A stretch of DNA of 64,000 bases from an uncultured delta proteobacterium (GTDB lineage Bacteria; Myxococcota_A; Polyangia; Polyangiales; B10-G4). Below, piece by piece: positions 1 to 8,489 of this stretch; the stretch's first letter is position 1, and each line of letters begins with the position of its first letter. A program made the position numbers and the translations under genes. The stretch spans positions 1 to 64,000 of the forward strand of contig CAVSGI010000021.1 of the NCBI GenBank assembly GCA_963727445.1. Reading direction: 5' to 3'. Below the pieces are notes generated by a model. The model was given only the letters and a program-made list of their open reading frames with translations. It was not told the DNA's origin and made no database searches.

Positions 1-89
1 ACCGAATTGCAGAATTTGAGATAGCTCGCCGCCCGCGCCGATGACGCACGACTTATCGGAACCGACGGCCAAATGCTCGGCAGGGGGAA

Positions 90-214
90 GCTGATAGCCA
101 TCACAAACGGCCTCCGCTCCCCTCCGGCCGGGCTGGGAGTCGACAGATCATGCCTTCTCGGAAATTCGGGCGTCCGGGGAGCCGGTCCGCTTACACGGTG
201 GCTGGAAACCGGAG
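90..214 (+). repeat. R1 dispersed structured repeat, full copy A (opposite orientation to B, C, F); no IS inserted
   Basis: GCTGATAGCCATCACAAACGGCCTC-[hairpin]-GAGTCGACAGATCATGCCTTCTCGGAAATTCGGGCGTCCGG-[hairpin]-GGCTGGAAACCGGAG; reverse complement aligns with 2353-2469, 6868-6985 and 15724-15848. Confidence 0.85.
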
Positions 215-345
215 CTTTGATGTCCAGTCGGATTTGCGATCTCCGCATAGTCGGCGCCGTTTCTTCGGGCCTGAGTTACGAACCCTGCTCGAGCTTGGCC
301 TTTGACAGTCTAGTGCTCCGTCCTGGTTCGGGAGAACTTGCCTAC

Positions 346-894
346 CTAGCAGGAGACGAATGTAAGACCCGTTAGCCCGCTTGCCTCATAGCGCGAAATG
401 AAGTCGTCGCCCAACTCTCTGTCGTCGCGTTGCACAGTGAGGACGTCTCCGCGCACCGTCTCTGCAACCTTGAATAACGTCGACTCCCCGAATCCGAAAT
501 CACGAAAGGCATACTTCTGAAGGGTGAGTCTCTTTCCGGTGCGAGCGTCAAACCTCCAAGTCGCTCGCGACGGTTCGAGGACAGGATAGATTTCGGTAAC
601 GTTCAGAATGAAGACAGGCTCCTTCTCCTCGCCGAGACTTGCCTCCAGCACTTGACCGGCCATCTCGAAAAGGTCCTCCAGCGCATCCAACGCGGCGGAG
701 TCGAAGCACAAGCACCCAGGCGCGAGATGGAAAAAGTTTCCTCGAACTTGTGTGGCATTGAAGACCAACAGCTCCAACCTCTGCCACTCCCCTTTTGCTC
801 TTCCATCGAACTGCAGTTCAGACCAGCTTGCCTCATCTGCGGGAATAACAGTCTGATACTTCACAACATCCTCACGGATCAGGAAGGTGTTCAT
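346..894 (-). CDS. Putative immunity protein (Imm11/DUF1629-like) for the adjacent AHH nuclease
   Basis: 182 aa directly downstream of an AHH toxin tip; 'FILNVTE', 'LFKV' and terminal 'GLTGLTF' resemble Imm11/DUF1629 proteins. Confidence 0.6.
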   Translation of the reverse strand: MNTFLIREDVVKYQTVIPADEASWSELQFDGRAKGEWQRLELLVFNATQVRGNFFHLAPGCLCFDSAALDALEDLFEMAGQVLEASLGEEKEPVFILNVTEIYPVLEPSRATWRFDARTGKRLTLQKYAFRDFGFGESTLFKVAETVRGDVLTVQRDDRELGDDFISRYEASGLTGLTFVSC

Positions 895-944: not shown

Positions 945-1220
945 CTAGTACGGGAACTCGCCGGCCGGTATCTCAGTGGCGATCGCCCGCAACTCCTCCC
1001 GGACCGTGCCTGGTGCCGCATCCTGAAGTCGTCTTCCAAGCTCAGTGTAGTACCGGTTGGTGTGAATTACTGAGTGAGTTGTAGTCGGCGGCTGAGCAAC
1101 CCGGCGCGAGCGGGGAAGAAAAATCCCGTTTGCGGCCTCGTTGATGTCGATACCCTCGCGCCGAAGAATCCGACGTGAGAGTGCAGCTCGCGCATCCTGA
1201 GAGACTATGTGATGGCTATC
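945..1220 (-). pseudogene. Orphan C-terminal AHH (HNH/EndoVII) nuclease toxin fragment
   Basis: SHHIV...GIDINEAANGIFLP...HSVIHTNRYY motif set; the ORF upstream of HHIV is the antisense of an RCC1 fragment. Confidence 0.75.
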
Positions 1221-1223
1221 CAC

Positions 1224-1379
1224 GACGATGGCGCCGAGATCGAGGCGGGCGGTGACACCACGTGCGCGCGCCGGTTGGATGGAACCGTGATGTGTTGGGG
1301 CGACAACGAGTTCGGCCAGCTCGGCAACGGGACGACCACGCCTTCGTCTACGCCGGTGTTCGTGATCGGTCCGGAATAG
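1224..1379 (+). pseudogene. 3' fragment of an RCC1-repeat protein
   Basis: EIEAGGDTTCARRLDGTVMCWGDNEFGQLGNGTTTPSSTPVFV then stop; no start. Confidence 0.8.
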
Positions 1380-1422
1380 GCGGCGGCTTGCTCGCCCGTC
1401 ACGTTCGGTGTCTGATCGCGGC

Positions 1423-2034
1423 ATGTTGCGGCGTGACGTGAAGCTGGACTGGAAGGACGCCGTCCTCTTCGCCCTCGGCTTCGCAGTCGCGGTCGGCGTT
1501 CTCGTGTTTCTCTCGACTCAGTACGGGATGACCCTCGAGAACCGTCTCCTGAGGATCGCGATGCTTCTGCTCTGCTTCGGCCCGCTGGCCGCGCGGCGCG
1601 CGTGGTTCGGCCAGCCCACTCGGGCGACGCCGAAGGAGGGGCTGCTCTGGTCGGTGGTCTCGATCCTCGCCCTGCTTCTGATCTTCGGGGGCGTGGGCTC
1701 GCTCGGGTTGTCGCTCGTCCCGCTCAGCCGCCTGCTCGAGTCTCCTCCCGATTTCGAGGCCGACGCTCCCCCAGCGATCGCTCCCACGTCGAACTTCGAT
1801 TACGAGATCCTCGACCCGAACGAGACGCCCGAAGCGCGTGACGCGCGGCTCGCGCGCGAAGCTCGGGAAGCGCAGGTAGTGACGCGAGACGACAAGCCGG
1901 ACGTGTCGGCGCGGTCGAATTGGGAAGCGCAGCGTGCGCGTGCACGCACGAACGCGCTGCTCATGCTCGCTCTGGGGCTCGGCCTCATCGCCGTGGGTAC
2001 GCTGCTGATGACGTTGCGCAATCGGCGAACCTGA
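1423..2034 (+). CDS. Hypothetical membrane protein (~4 TM)
   Basis: Hydrophobic segments in ORF 1408-2034; ATG at 1423. Confidence 0.6.
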   Translation: MLRRDVKLDWKDAVLFALGFAVAVGVLVFLSTQYGMTLENRLLRIAMLLLCFGPLAARRAWFGQPTRATPKEGLLWSVVSILALLLIFGGVGSLGLSLVPLSRLLESPPDFEADAPPAIAPTSNFDYEILDPNETPEARDARLAREAREAQVVTRDDKPDVSARSNWEAQRARARTNALLMLALGLGLIAVGTLLMTLRNRRT

Positions 2035-2127: not shown

Positions 2128-2352
2128 TCAGTTCGCGTCTTCGAACTCGGCGTCGATGACGCCGTCACCGCCTTCGTCGTCGCTCGGGGGAGGCGCGCCC
2201 GCACCCGCAGCGCCGGCGACGGCGTCACCGCCCGCGGCCTGGTAGGCCTCGGTGGCGATCTCCTGCATGGTCTTCTCGAGCGCTTCCATGCGCGTCTTGA
2301 TCTGGTCGTCGTTCTGCTCGTCGATGGCCTTGCGCAGATCTTCGATCTTCTT
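2128..2352 (-). pseudogene. dnaK: 3' fragment of Hsp70/DnaK
   Basis: KIEDLRKAIDEQNDDQIKTRMEALEK...EAYQAAGG...DGVIDAEFEDAN is a typical DnaK tail; cut at the R1 copy B edge. Confidence 0.85.
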
Positions 2353-2469
2353 CTCCGCTTTCCAGCTCTCCGGCAACCGTCACGGATCCAGGGAAAGCTG
2401 AGTTTCCGAGAAGGTATGATCTGTCGACTCCCTGCCCGGCCGGAGGGGAGCGGAGGCCGTTCATGGTTA
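2353..2469 (-). repeat. R1 copy B, interrupted at its end by IS copy 1 (remaining TCCGC at 3895-3899)
   Basis: CTCCGCTTTCCAGC...GAGTTTCCGAGAAGGTATGATCTGTCGACTCCC...GGAGGCCGTTCATGGTTA. Confidence 0.8.
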
Positions 2470-2559
2470 CTTCTGTGAAGCGGCCACCCCGGTCAACTGC
2501 GTTGTTTTTGATTTTGCGCTCTACGTCGTCGTGGCTCGTCTCCTTCGCTTCGGCTCGGG

Positions 2560-2760
2560 TTCGTCGTTTCGCTCGTACGTGACGGGTTGTTCAGCCTTCT
2601 GTTCGCGCTCGACTGGGGCGGCTTCGAGGCCGCGGCGCAGGGTGGGATTCGGTGGTGATCGGCGCCATCTATCCGTCGGCGTTCGATAGCAGCCAGTAAA
2701 CATGTCGCGCTCGACCACCATAATCGGTTCCCTTCACATTGAGCGGGTCATCGTCGTTGC
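2560..2760 (-). ncRNA. Predicted bridge/seekRNA of IS copy 1 (ends approximate)
   Basis: Stem GGTGGTCG/CGATCACC encloses CATGTTTA and CGGATA (target halves); ATCCCA and ACAGAAG (element-end halves) follow. Confidence 0.65.
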
Positions 2761-2769
2761 GTCTTCAGG

Positions 2770-3801
2770 TCAGGCCGCAGCAGCCTCCTCACGACTCGCT
2801 GTCGCCTCGAAGCGCGTCCCGTCTCGCCACATCGCGTACAGGATCCCCGCGAGCTTGCGCGCCAGCGCGACCGCCGCGATTCGTTTGCCGCGCCGCGCGG
2901 CGATGCGCAGTGTCCATTCGCGAAGCGGCGCCGTCTCCGGTCGTTTGTGCCGCAAGATCCCCCAGGCCGCTTCGACGAGCAGCGACCGAAGGCGACGACT
3001 ACCCGTCTTCGTGATGTGGCCTCTCATTCGTTTTTCGCCCGAGCTCAGCTCGCGCGGCACCAGGCCCAGATAGGCACGCACTTGCGAGGCGTTGTGGAAG
3101 CGGCCGATCTGGTCGACCACCGCGACGAAGGTCACCGCCGTGACGGGCCCGATGCTCGGCACCGTGCACAGACGCTCGACCACCTCGTCGCCCTTGGCGA
3201 GCTCGGCGAGGCGCTTGTCGGCGTCGCGGATCTGCGCGGTGAGTTGCTCGAGCATCACGAGCAGGGGGGCGACCTCGAGCGACAGGTGCGCTGGCAGCGA
3301 CAGCTCCTCGATGCGCGCGGCAAACGTTGCCGCTCCGCCGCTTCGCGGCGACAGCCCCTCGCGCCGTAGAAGTGCCCGGGTGAGCGAGATGTACTTCGTT
3401 CGCGTGCGCACCAGCGCATCACGCACCGCGACCTGCGCTCGCCGATGCCGAGCCGCGTCCGAGGCGCGGTGCGCCGGGCGGTACGCGCCGAGCCGGCAGG
3501 CGTCGCATAGCGCTCGCGCGTCGCGCCGGTCCGTCTTCACTTTGCGGCTCCGCGTGGCGTACATCGGCGCGAAGTTCGGGTCGGCCACGATCACCTCGTG
3601 ACCCAGCTCCTCGAGCCAGCGAGCCACCCACTCGCTGTCCGTCGACGCCTCCATCACGATCTTCGCCCGTGCGCGGTTGGCGAACAGCTTCGCCAGGGCT
3701 TCGCGCGTCGTCGCCACGCGCCGCTCCCACAGCTCTCCCTCTTTCGTCTGGATGCAGACCTGACTTGTCTTCTTGTGAACATCGATGCCAATGTGCTCCA
3801 C
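2770..3801 (-). CDS. IS110-family DEDD recombinase/transposase
   Basis: GIDVHK, MEAS, KTDRRDA (DEDD RuvC) and C-terminal LVPRELSSG; GGAGG RBS before GTG. Confidence 0.95.
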   Translation of the reverse strand: MEHIGIDVHKKTSQVCIQTKEGELWERRVATTREALAKLFANRARAKIVMEASTDSEWVARWLEELGHEVIVADPNFAPMYATRSRKVKTDRRDARALCDACRLGAYRPAHRASDAARHRRAQVAVRDALVRTRTKYISLTRALLRREGLSPRSGGAATFAARIEELSLPAHLSLEVAPLLVMLEQLTAQIRDADKRLAELAKGDEVVERLCTVPSIGPVTAVTFVAVVDQIGRFHNASQVRAYLGLVPRELSSGEKRMRGHITKTGSRRLRSLLVEAAWGILRHKRPETAPLREWTLRIAARRGKRIAAVALARKLAGILYAMWRDGTRFEATASREEAAAA

Positions 3802-3897
3802 GGCTGGCCTCCACTCTGCGGCTCTTGACCGCGATCAACGTTGTGGGGCTACGGCTACCACGTCAGTGGCGGCCAGCCGCTTACATCCCATCTATCC

Positions 3898-4629
3898 GCC
3901 ACCGTGCGCTGGGGCCTGACACTCTTCCCCGATCTGGGCGGAAGCCAGTGCGGACAGGATGCGATCCCGATCCCGGTGGGCGACGCCAACGAGACCGCGA
4001 TTCAGACGCTCCTCACCAACGCCCTCGATCCGAGCGATCCCTACCACTGCCGGGCGGGGCCCTGCGTCACCAACATAGACACGGCGATGGAGCAGGCGGC
4101 ATCGGATCCCGCATTCGTCGACACCACCCGCGCGAGCTACGCCTTGCTGGTGACCGACGGGAAACAGTCGGGGAGCTGCCGGGGCGGCAGCGACGATCGG
4201 ACCTTCGCGGCGATCGAGGGACTCCGCGGGCGTGGGATCGAGACCTTCGTGGTCGGCTTCGGAAGCGGAGTGGACGGAGAGGCGCTCAGCCGCTTCGCGA
4301 CCCTCGGCGGGACGGATCTGCCGGCGACGCCCAGCTACTACCAGGCCAACGCTCCGGCCGAGCTCCTGACCGCGTTCGACACGATCGTGAGTGGCGTCGT
4401 CAGTTGTGACTATGCGGTGGCAGACATGCCCACCGACCTCTCGATGGTCACCGTCTTCTTCGACGGCAGCCGCACGGTGGACCGCGACGAGAGCCATGCC
4501 GCGGGGTGGGACTTCGACCCGACGACTGGCCGCCTCACTTTCTACGGAGGCCCCTGCGATGACCTCCGAAGCGGCAGCGCGCGCGACGTGGACGTCGTCT
4601 TCGGGTGCGCGGGCCCGAGCCTCGAATGA
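3898..4629 (+). pseudogene. 3' fragment of a VWA-domain protein
   Basis: VRWGLTLFP, LLVTDG, TFVVGFG, C-terminal GPCDDLR..VVFGC; the N-terminal DxSxS is missing, cut at the R1/IS edge. Confidence 0.8.
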
Positions 4630-6867: not shown

Positions 6868-6985
6868 CTCCGGTTTCCAGCCACCGTGTAAGCGGACCGG
6901 CTCCCCGGACGCCCGAAAATTCCGAGAAGGTACGATCTGTCGACTCGTCACACCGCCTGCGGCGGCGCGAGGCCGTTCGTGGTTA
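6868..6985 (-). repeat. R1 copy C, interrupted by IS copy 2
   Basis: CTCCGGTTTCCAGCCACCGTGTAAGCGGACCGGCTCCCCGGACGCCCGAA identical to the copy A arm; ends GAGGCCGTTCGTGGTTA. Confidence 0.85.
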
Positions 6986-7075
6986 CTTCTGTGAAGCGGC
7001 CACCCCGGTCAACTGCGTTGTTTTTGATTTTGCGCTCTACGTCGTCGTGGCTCGTCTCCTTCGCTTCGGCTCGGG

Positions 7076-7276
7076 TTCGTCGTTTCGCTCGTACGTGACG
7101 GGTTGTTCAGCCTTCTGTTCGCGCTCGACTGGGGCGGCTTCGAGGCCGCGGCGCAGGGTGGGATTCGGTGGTGATCGGCGCCATCTATCCGTCGGCGTTC
7201 GATAGCAGCCAGTAAACATGTCGCGCTCGACCACCATAATCGGTTCCCTTCACATTGAGCGGGTCATCGTCGTTGC
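7076..7276 (-). ncRNA. Predicted bridge/seekRNA of IS copy 2
   Basis: Same sequence as 2560-2760. Confidence 0.65.
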
Positions 7277-7285
7277 GTCTTCAGG

Positions 7286-8317
7286 TCAGGCCGCAGCAGC
7301 CTCCTCACGACTCGCTGTCGCCTCGAAGCGCGTCCCGTCTCGCCACATCGCGTACAGGATCCCCGCGAGCTTGCGCGCCAGCGCGACCGCCGCGATTCGT
7401 TTGCCGCGCCGCGCGGCGATGCGCAGTGTCCATTCGCGAAGCGGCGCCGTCTCCGGTCGTTTGTGCCGCAAGATCCCCCAGGCCGCTTCGACGAGCAGCG
7501 ACCGAAGGCGACGACTACCCGTCTTCGTGATGTGGCCTCTCATTCGTTTTTCGCCCGAGCTCAGCTCGCGCGGCACCAGGCCCAGATAGGCACGCACTTG
7601 CGAGGCGTTGTGGAAGCGGCCGATCTGGTCGACCACCGCGACGAAGGTCACCGCCGTGACGGGCCCGATGCTCGGCACCGTGCACAGACGCTCGACCACC
7701 TCGTCGCCCTTGGCGAGCTCGGCGAGGCGCTTGTCGGCGTCGCGGATCTGCGCGGTGAGTTGCTCGAGCATCACGAGCAGGGGGGCGACCTCGAGCGACA
7801 GGTGCGCTGGCAGCGACAGCTCCTCGATGCGCGCGGCAAACGTTGCCGCTCCGCCGCTTCGCGGCGACAGCCCCTCGCGCCGTAGAAGTGCCCGGGTGAG
7901 CGAGATGTACTTCGTTCGCGTGCGCACCAGCGCATCACGCACCGCGACCTGCGCTCGCCGATGCCGAGCCGCGTCCGAGGCGCGGTGCGCCGGGCGGTAC
8001 GCGCCGAGCCGGCAGGCGTCGCATAGCGCTCGCGCGTCGCGCCGGTCCGTCTTCACTTTGCGGCTCCGCGTGGCGTACATCGGCGCGAAGTTCGGGTCGG
8101 CCACGATCACCTCGTGACCCAGCTCCTCGAGCCAGCGAGCCACCCACTCGCTGTCCGTCGACGCCTCCATCACGATCTTCGCCCGTGCGCGGTTGGCGAA
8201 CAGCTTCGCCAGGGCTTCGCGCGTCGTCGCCACGCGCCGCTCCCACAGCTCTCCCTCTTTCGTCTGGATGCAGACCTGACTTGTCTTCTTGTGAACATCG
8301 ATGCCAATGTGCTCCAC
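7286..8317 (-). CDS. IS110-family DEDD recombinase/transposase
   Basis: Protein identical to 2770-3801. Confidence 0.95.
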   Translation of the reverse strand: MEHIGIDVHKKTSQVCIQTKEGELWERRVATTREALAKLFANRARAKIVMEASTDSEWVARWLEELGHEVIVADPNFAPMYATRSRKVKTDRRDARALCDACRLGAYRPAHRASDAARHRRAQVAVRDALVRTRTKYISLTRALLRREGLSPRSGGAATFAARIEELSLPAHLSLEVAPLLVMLEQLTAQIRDADKRLAELAKGDEVVERLCTVPSIGPVTAVTFVAVVDQIGRFHNASQVRAYLGLVPRELSSGEKRMRGHITKTGSRRLRSLLVEAAWGILRHKRPETAPLREWTLRIAARRGKRIAAVALARKLAGILYAMWRDGTRFEATASREEAAAA

Positions 8318-8489
8318 GGCTGGCCTCCACTCTGCGGCTCTTGACCGCGATCAACGTTGTGGGGCTACGGCTACCACGTCAGTGGCGGCCAGCCGCTTAC
8401 ATCCCATCTATCCGCCGCTACGACTCCATCGACCGGCTCTGCCACGTCTGTTCTCATCGAACGCGTCGGGCTCTCATCGAACGCGACGC

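Follow-up and report, generated by a model that had tools for sequence, protein, structure and literature searches.

The IS110-family element on the minus strand at 2470-3893 of the window (the whole 64-kb stretch of DNA that was analysed) is of the IS1111 type, and its 343-amino-acid recombinase very probably works with a two-loop guide RNA of ~150 nt that derives from the 3' non-coding end of the element. The predicted guides have been retargeted naturally between two subfamilies of the element in one genome, in step with the sequences that flank the insertions. Natural covariation and published work on relatives together suggest that the system is potentially reprogrammable.

In the mechanism that we propose, a structured RNA of ~150 nt made from the 3' non-coding end would partner the DEDD/Ser recombinase. 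In its target loop, located between stems P1/P2 and P3, the segment CAUGUUUA followed by CU would pair with the top strand of the core and the right flank, and the 3' strand of the loop, CGGAU followed by AG, would pair with the bottom strand of the left flank and the core. Together, the two target guides would specify the 15-bp site CGGAT-AG-TAAnCATG. The donor loop around P5/P6 would use AUCCCA and ACAGA+AG to read the left and right element ends as they are joined in the excised circle, and recombination at the AG core would then produce insertion in one orientation. Binding of the RNA by the recombinase, the circular intermediate and expression from a junction promoter are proposed by analogy with relatives, and the role assigned to the RNA leans on published work on ISEc11, ISKpn4 and IS621. 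For IS1111-type elements, the RNA is described as located downstream of tnp, as having its top-strand match on the 5' side of the bottom-strand one, as co-purifying with the transposase, and as amenable to reprogramming (PMC11187229). A bridge RNA has been predicted in 93% of IS1111 elements (PMC11208160), and for IS621, two loops are reported that recognise both strands of target and donor around a core of 2 nt (PMC11208160, PMC11208158).

The host genome (9.47 Mb in 27 contigs) contains eight near-full copies of the element, which were aligned with their flanks and compared with uninterrupted target sites. The alignment separates two subfamilies with ~90% mutual identity, subfamily 1 comprising copies A, B and C and subfamily 2 comprising copies D-H. 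A second copy in the window, with identical guides, occupies 6986-8409 on the minus strand. The interval 2470-3893 includes both AG cores, and the element length of 1422 bp counts one of them. Because uninterrupted sites exist, it is clear that the element adds 1422 bp and that the AG is ambiguous at both ends.

At the left end (all features on the minus strand), the left target half CGGAT in the flank (3894-3898), which equals the left target guide in all three subfamily-1 copies, is followed by the core AG (3892-3893). A terminal extension of seven bases, AG+ATGGG, stands to the left of the subterminal inverted repeat ATGTAAGCGGC (3876-3886), which was placed by copy alignment. At the right end, the subterminal inverted repeat GCCGCTTCAC (2475-2484), placed from the sequence, the copy alignment and the right ends of relatives, precedes a three-base extension, AGA (2472-2474), the second core AG (2470-2471) and the right target half TAACCATG (2462-2469), which is the tip of a ~70-nt repeat. 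ATGTAAGCGGC and GCCGCTTCAC pair with one indel, and in relatives a 13-bp repeat, ATGAAGCGGCTGG, is found at both ends.

The core dinucleotide is AG at both junctions, as judged from the copy alignment and the uninterrupted sites. In subfamily 1, the sequence is ..CGGAT-AG-ATGGGATG.. across the left junction and ..CACAGA-AG-TAACCA[T/C]G.. across the right one; in subfamily 2, it is ..TGGAT-AG-ATGGGATG.. and ..CACAGA-AG-CCATCACA.., in the same order. Uninterrupted sites in the genome comprise TGGATAGCCATCACA (three times), TGATAGCCATCACA (five times) and GGGTAGTAACCATG (four times). The empty site of subfamily 2, TGGATAG joined to CCATCACA (..GGATAG joined to CCATCAC..), is present exactly at three places, and a subfamily-1-type site, GGGTAG joined to TAACCATG, at four. 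The TA core proposed in the sequence-only reading is wrong, since the uninterrupted sites show AG and both target guides carry it (as ..AG on the left and as CU on the right). The sequence GGATAACCATG, expected under a TA core, is absent among the 27 listed repeat sites, and TA is also missing on the right side of subfamily 2. In two relatives (L093 and L046), AT replaces the AG of the present element at the right junction as well as in the left donor guide and the right target guide, so the core dinucleotide apparently varies within the clade.

The recombinase gene (2770-3801, minus strand) has a GTG start and encodes 343 amino acids. The protein matches the Pfam models PF01548 (DEDD_Tnp_IS110; 71.8, cut-off 29) and PF02371 (Transposase_20; 83.9, cut-off 21.3) as well as the NCBIfam model NF033542, 'IS110 family RNA-guided transposase' (277 bits, cut-off 140), and it aligns end to end with the structurally solved recombinases of ISCro4 and IS621 (E 1.9e-15 and 2.3e-14), IGIDV, MEA, KTDxxDA and SG being conserved. 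Alignment to ISCro4 locates the motifs IGIDV (D7), MEA (E51), KTDRRDA (D91, D94) and LSSG (S253/S254-G255), all present in copies A-C; the roles of the D-E-D-D and Ser residues are assigned from the account of IS621 (PMC11208158). The group characters of IS1111 are present as well: 298 nt of non-coding sequence downstream of tnp (2472-2769) compared with 90 nt upstream (3802-3891), a length of 343 amino acids within the 330-350 of the group, the motif GL-P----S(t)G in the form GLVPRELSSG, and subterminal repeats, for which ~11-13 bp is usual, with extensions of 7 bp on the left and 3 bp on the right. Subterminal inverted repeats with 7-bp and 3-bp terminal extensions are described as a hallmark of IS1111 elements (PMC11187229). 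With an open frame, matches to the family models and boundaries drawn from eight copies, the element is an intact IS1111-type element, as had been suggested.

The frame is open at 343 amino acids, with all catalytic motifs, in six of the eight copies; copy A is 99% identical to copy B in its DNA and fully identical in its protein. In addition, contigs from other samples continue from the element into six different flanks at 3894-3900, an indication of other insertion sites that fits recent mobility. These observations speak against the window copy being a decayed, immobile relic whose guide matches are merely historical, a reading that we consider very unlikely. What it can draw on are the broken frames of two of the eight copies (an altered C-terminus in copy G and a stop after 48 amino acids in copy H) and the single mismatch of the right guide to every occupied site.

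Four short segments in the 3' non-coding end had been singled out as guides, and all of them are found there on the minus strand: CATGTTTA at 2697-2704, CGGATA at 2670-2675 (extending to CGGATAGATGG over 2665-2675), ATCCCA at 2643-2648 and ACAGAAG at 2596-2602. The right target guide, CAUGUUUA+CU (2695-2704), is complementary to the top strand AG+TAACCATG; the match to the right target half, first counted as 7 of 8 bases, grows to 9 of 10 at the right junction when the core-complementary CU is included. The left target guide, CGGAU+AG (2669-2675, from the copy alignment), has the sense of the top strand and would pair with the bottom strand. Its match to the left target half and core, described as running for 11 nt across the left junction, holds in full, with CGGATAGATGG matching at 11/11 positions. 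The internal loop thus has, as in a bridge RNA or seekRNA, one strand matching each target half, on opposite DNA strands, with the core common to both.

Within the 64-kb window, the 11-mer CGGATAGATGG occurs four times, corresponding to the left junction and the internal site of both copies, where shuffled sequences lead to an expectation of 0.03 (0/100 shuffles reached four). AGTAACCATG, allowing at most one mismatch, has five matches compared with 0.55 expected from shuffles of the 64-kb window; of these, four fall at the right junction and the internal guide site of each copy.

The guides and flanks of the two subfamilies differ in concert. Subfamily 1 has the guides CGGAU and CAUG[U/C]UUA beside the flanks CGGAT and TAACCA[T/C]G, and subfamily 2 has UGGAU beside TGGAT and UGUGCUGG+CU matching AG+CCATCACA at 9 of 10 positions. 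When each copy is compared with its own guides, the left junctions match at 5/5 bases in all seven readable cases and the right junctions at 8-9 of 10, while the cross-match of the subfamily-1 guide to the subfamily-2 flank is 5/10. In 8/8 copies, the right target guide is mismatched at one and the same position, base four of the right flank, and a genome-wide search found no site that perfectly matches the guides of either subfamily. A natural mismatch between guide and target is likewise reported to be tolerated in IS621 (PMC11208160). A contig from another sample (run X2, covering 2446-3624) carries a ~97% identical variant (38 differences in 1179 nt), in which one base of the right target guide is changed (2698) and the adjoining right flank is unaltered; either genuine drift of the guide or a chimeric contig could explain this.

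Covariation of target and guide among homologs, which had been put forward as a check, was analysed in relatives found by a protein-guided scan of one genome per species. The scan yielded 79 loci with 55-68% protein identity, from Acidobacteriota, Gemmatimonadota, Rokubacteria, Myxococcota and other phyla. A DNA profile of the non-coding end is conserved over positions 49-184 and gave 66 hits in 65 loci, one locus having two. Junctions were anchored on the subterminal repeats, and one second hit, cut flanks and loci in which the repeat was not found were dropped, leaving 62 left and 58 right junctions, three of the copies from this genome being among them.

The guides track the flanks and the element ends in these relatives, and no permutation reached the observed scores. 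For the left guide 5-mer and the left flank, 34 distinct guides match at 143 of 170 positions, compared with 55 (sd 6.7) after permutation (0/10000 as high). For the right guide 10-mer and the core plus right flank, 43 guides match at 354 of 430 positions, compared with 241 (sd 7.4; 0/2000). Counted over all loci, the left guide matches at 5/5 bases in 28, at 4/5 in 19 and less well in 15 of 62, and the right guide at 10/10 in 15, at 9 in 19, at 8 in 9 and less well in 15 of 58; some of the poor rows (at most 3/5 on the left or 7/10 on the right) are anchoring errors (for example L080 and L101), and others may be decayed copies. In most relatives, the 5' strand of the target loop complements the final element base, the core and the right flank. 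Guides therefore change with their targets both here, between the two subfamilies, and among relatives, by permutation, as is characteristic of bridge RNAs and seekRNAs. Two of the four matches are only 6-7 nt long, which could make one think of coincidence; the shuffle tests, the permutation tests and the compensatory differences between the subfamilies refute this, and we regard the chance of it as negligible.

All guide segments sit in unpaired strands of the two internal loops of a scaffold of ~149 nt (2577-2725, minus strand), to which a covariance model aligns over 2577-2724 with 113 bits (E 3e-25). To obtain this model, 66 RNAs were aligned, a structure with stems P1-P6 was written, and 85 sources were searched, giving 79 matches that include both window copies at 113 bits. 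Stem P1 is formed by the 5' strand GGTGGTCG (2712-2719) and the 3' strand CGATCACC (2654-2661), both placed from relatives and from the copies in this genome. This is the stem that had been read as closing the internal loop of the first guide pair; it is present, and it covaries. The hairpin P3 (GGC...GCC, 2678-2694) closes the target loop on the inner side, and P5 (UGCGC/GCGCG) and the hairpin P6 (GCGGC/GCCGC) lie between the donor guides (2604-2639).

Changes on both sides of a pair were observed for 9 of 12 pairs in P1 and P2, 3 of 4 in P3 and 6 of 7 in P6, giving a total of 19 of 32 pairs. Even across the copies in this genome, the P1 pair beside the loop is G-U, A-U or G-C. P5 and the outer stem of the donor loop are invariant in relatives, so covariation is silent on both. 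In the model-fitted alignment, 90.7% of cells are paired, and the covariation score is 0.283 compared with 0.103 for shuffled alignments (0/500 as high) and at most 0.079 with slid partners; the alignment was fitted to the structure and is hence biased towards it, and the slid controls argue against an artefact. The guides in the 3' non-coding end of ~300 nt are thus held, as had been proposed, by a two-loop scaffold of ~150 nt with covarying stems. Folding of the single sequence gives unremarkable energies, with z = -0.65 over 301 nt and z = -0.14 over 149 nt, and a search of 2300-4000 against Rfam 15 with E up to 10 gave only two chance-level matches (E 2.8 and 5.4), both on the other strand and inside tnp.

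Co-variation of guides and flanks by itself cannot tell RNA from DNA. The guide-like segments might act as DNA, either as internal copies of the junctions that are bound by the transposase or as single-stranded DNA guides like those of IS200/IS605, with no RNA involved. We consider this highly improbable. G-U pairing is tolerated in the stems only on the sense strand, with 8, 7 and 67 such cells at individual pairs, for example; the counterparts on the other strand would be C-A, so it is one strand that folds. Moreover, the RNAs of relatives are reported to co-purify with the transposase and to be needed in trans (PMC11187229), and structures of IS621 show RNA-DNA pairing (PMC11208158). No transcript of the region was seen, in contig data that are blind to small RNAs: in two RNA runs, contigs of the element cover 3753-3895 only, and such contigs cannot reveal a small RNA.

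Returning to the guide RNA, the strands of its second loop match both element ends. The right donor guide, AUCCCA (2643-2648), is complementary to bases 2-7 of the left element end (TGGGAT), and the left donor guide, ACAGA+AG (2596-2602), equals the right element end plus the core. These matches of 6 and 7 nt are not significant by themselves, and their assignment to the two element ends, made earlier from the sequence alone, is supported because segments and ends covary among relatives. Against the right element end, the left donor guide scores 286, compared with 242 (sd 4.7) after permutation, and the right donor guide scores 240 against the left element end, compared with 213 (sd 3.9); in each case 0/5000 permutations scored as high. 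Examples of such covariation are AAUAGAAG with CATAGAAG, AAUACAAG with CATACAAG, and GGGAT with AUCCC as opposed to GGTAT with ACC.

The donor covariation also bears on a reading in which only the target loop guides, as a short seekRNA of ~70-100 nt, the second loop is scaffold, and the ends are read by the protein through the subterminal repeats. Such an arrangement has a precedent in ISEc11, for which an 82-nt seekRNA is reported to be enough for transposition (PMC11187229). It also agrees with the weak outer closing stem of the donor loop, UCG/UGA, which does not vary among relatives and here contains a C-A mismatch, and with a right donor guide that pairs over 6 contiguous bases only. We nevertheless judge it unlikely, given that both donor segments covary with the ends in relatives.

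Directly after the core of the left target guide stands AUGG (2665-2668), identical to the first four bases of the element and part of the 11/11 match across the left junction, which may be a handshake or junction-reading segment. The four bases after the core of the left guide and the element start are ATGG/ATGG in 20 loci, TTGG/TTGG in 10 and TTAG/TTGG in 5. As a covarying handshake, AUGG was rejected in the permutation test (not significant, 398/5000 as good), in which ATGG dominates; the TTGG and TTAG groups point in the direction of co-variation with the element end, and are suggestive only. IS621 is described as having 2-nt handshake guides beside the top-strand guides.

We tentatively raise the possibility, which we find doubtful, that in this clade the target loop alone reads the inserted state, its 3' strand corresponding to the left flank, the core and the element start (11/11 here). 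IS621 differs in this respect, each of its junctions spanning both loops. If the possibility were true, IS1111-type RNAs would guide excision, with both junctions recognised by one loop, and this would account for a short seekRNA and matching donor flanks sufficing in ISEc11.

For the expression of the two-loop guide RNA, a junction promoter may be completed when the ends join in the circle. TTGACC (2491-2496, minus strand) is a likely -35 box, with TTGAC at a fixed offset in 49 of 56 right ends of relatives, and after a 17-nt spacer it is followed by GAAGAT, which spans the junction and would arise only on joining of the ends. ISEc11 is known to have such a junction promoter (cited in PMC11187229).

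The insertion point lies ~8 nt inside the sharp edge of the ~70-nt repeat, between ..TAG and TAACCATGAACGGCCTCCGCTCCCCTCCGGCCGG... The core of the repeat is present at 27 sites, and a second module, with 28 copies genome-wide, often follows. The composite repeat consists of module A (~70 nt, with a GC-rich hairpin) and module B (~50 nt). In the window it lies at 88-250 (plus strand), 2390-2469 (minus) and 6900-6985 (minus), and elsewhere in the genome (G000) at C12:22-33 kb, C24:1-9.5 kb and C9:926-935 kb. The copies form arrays of the same orientation with a spacing of 0.8-2 kb near contig ends, and neighbouring genes include fragments (PPK2, DnaK C-terminus, VWA, FKBP) and Xer-like tyrosine recombinases. 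Rfam searches of three target-repeat loci gave no matches, and the repeat did not fold as DNA into a single long hairpin. An integron at the target repeat was considered and rejected: the tyrosine recombinases in its vicinity stay below the cut-off of 265 for the integron-integrase model TIGR02249 (128 and 82 bits in one gene, 150 bits in another), and for the 150-bit tyrosine recombinase the XerD model outscores TIGR02249. Adjoining the truncated repeat to the right of copy A is an ORF of 82 amino acids (2128-2376, minus strand) for which Pfam gave only a sub-threshold coiled-coil match, and which looked by eye like the C-terminal tail of DnaK.

At one locus (G000 C12:31061-32215, equivalent to L113:11061-12215), two inverted copies of module A bound 1.15 kb with broken DDE_Tnp_1 frames. 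The bounding copies are alike over ~60-70 nt and differ at their tips, one being of the TAACCATG (TAAC) type and the other, which is occupied by element copy E, of the CCATCACA (CCAT) type. Inverted repeats around a DDE remnant indicate that the repeat is perhaps the end of another transposon, comparable to the insertion of IS4321/IS5075 in Tn21 ends. Each IS subfamily may be specialised on one end of a DDE transposon, as this single case would suggest.

An unoccupied subfamily-2 target, TGGATAG joined to CCATCACA, is found at 1208-1222 (minus strand) inside an ORF for an AHH nuclease, and a paralogous site harbours copy G (C11). Both lie outside the repeat, in AHH-nuclease genes, which fits recognition of the short 15-bp site and not of the repeat. 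The ORF in the window (945-1424, minus strand) has an AHH (HNH/EndoVII) nuclease domain and is followed by an ORF without a family match (346-894, minus strand); the pair looks like the C-terminal module of a polymorphic toxin with its immunity gene.

Among the relatives, elements from Gemmatimonadota lie between attC-like boxes, the insertion having GCCTAAC on its left at ~12-20 nt and GTTAGGC on its right at ~100 nt. The box pairs are exactly complementary in 3 of 53 loci (L082, L074 and L092), and an attC-like setting was also seen at L104, L069, L070, L090 and L093-L097. The clade thus has attC-targeting members, as does the known IS1111-attC group. In eight other relatives from other phyla (L063, L058, L085, L057, L105, L098, L099 and L081), the right flanks are alike beyond the guided 8-10 nt (..ACAT[A/G]A..GCCC.TTCTCGG..), and the shared sequence resembles part of the repeat in this genome. 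From these flank sequences, the target element itself seems related across phyla.

IS4321/IS5075 and the IS1111-attC group are IS1111-type elements that insert at a fixed position and in a fixed orientation inside the repeat of another mobile element. The present element resembles IS4321/IS5075 in its fixed position and orientation within a mobile-element repeat, but its target is the tip of a ~70-nt repeat and not a Tn21-type end. It differs from the IS1111-attC group in that canonical attC boxes were not noticed in its repeat on informal inspection. With ISEc11, ISKpn4/ISPst6 and ISPa11, as described in PMC11187229, it shares a DEDD transposase of ~340 amino acids with GL-P----SG, a long non-coding region downstream of tnp, extensions of 7 and 3 bp, and an RNA in which the top-strand match comes first, on the 5' side of the bottom-strand one. 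Redirection in nature is described there too, between close relatives such as ISEc11 and ISXne4 (PMC11187229). Compared with the ISEc11 group, the present element has another host lineage and another target: it comes from a high-GC genome from a wetland metagenome, its best relatives (55-68% protein identity) are from metagenome bins, and two retargeted subfamilies coexist in one genome, each with occupied and empty sites. The two internal loops, with a guide per strand and a 2-nt core read by both guides, are as described for IS621 (PMC11208160, PMC11208158). In contrast to the published description of IS621, the RNA lies at the 3' end and not the 5' end, the loops carry their guides in the opposite order, the core is AG and not CT, and the bottom-strand target guide extends 4 nt into the left end of the element.

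The mechanism itself is known, having been described in 2024, and the present element is a new example that leaves it unchanged. It is valuable for its clean natural retargeting and for the many related RNAs. A single genome reveals the boundaries, the core, four guides, empty sites and two retargeted subfamilies, and ~70 distinct related RNAs, a clade without an Rfam model, show which positions are scaffold and which are programmable. The compact 343-amino-acid recombinase, from a high-GC lineage, is an addition to the candidate bridge recombinases, and the two subfamilies illustrate how elements of this family track variants of the repeat of another mobile element.
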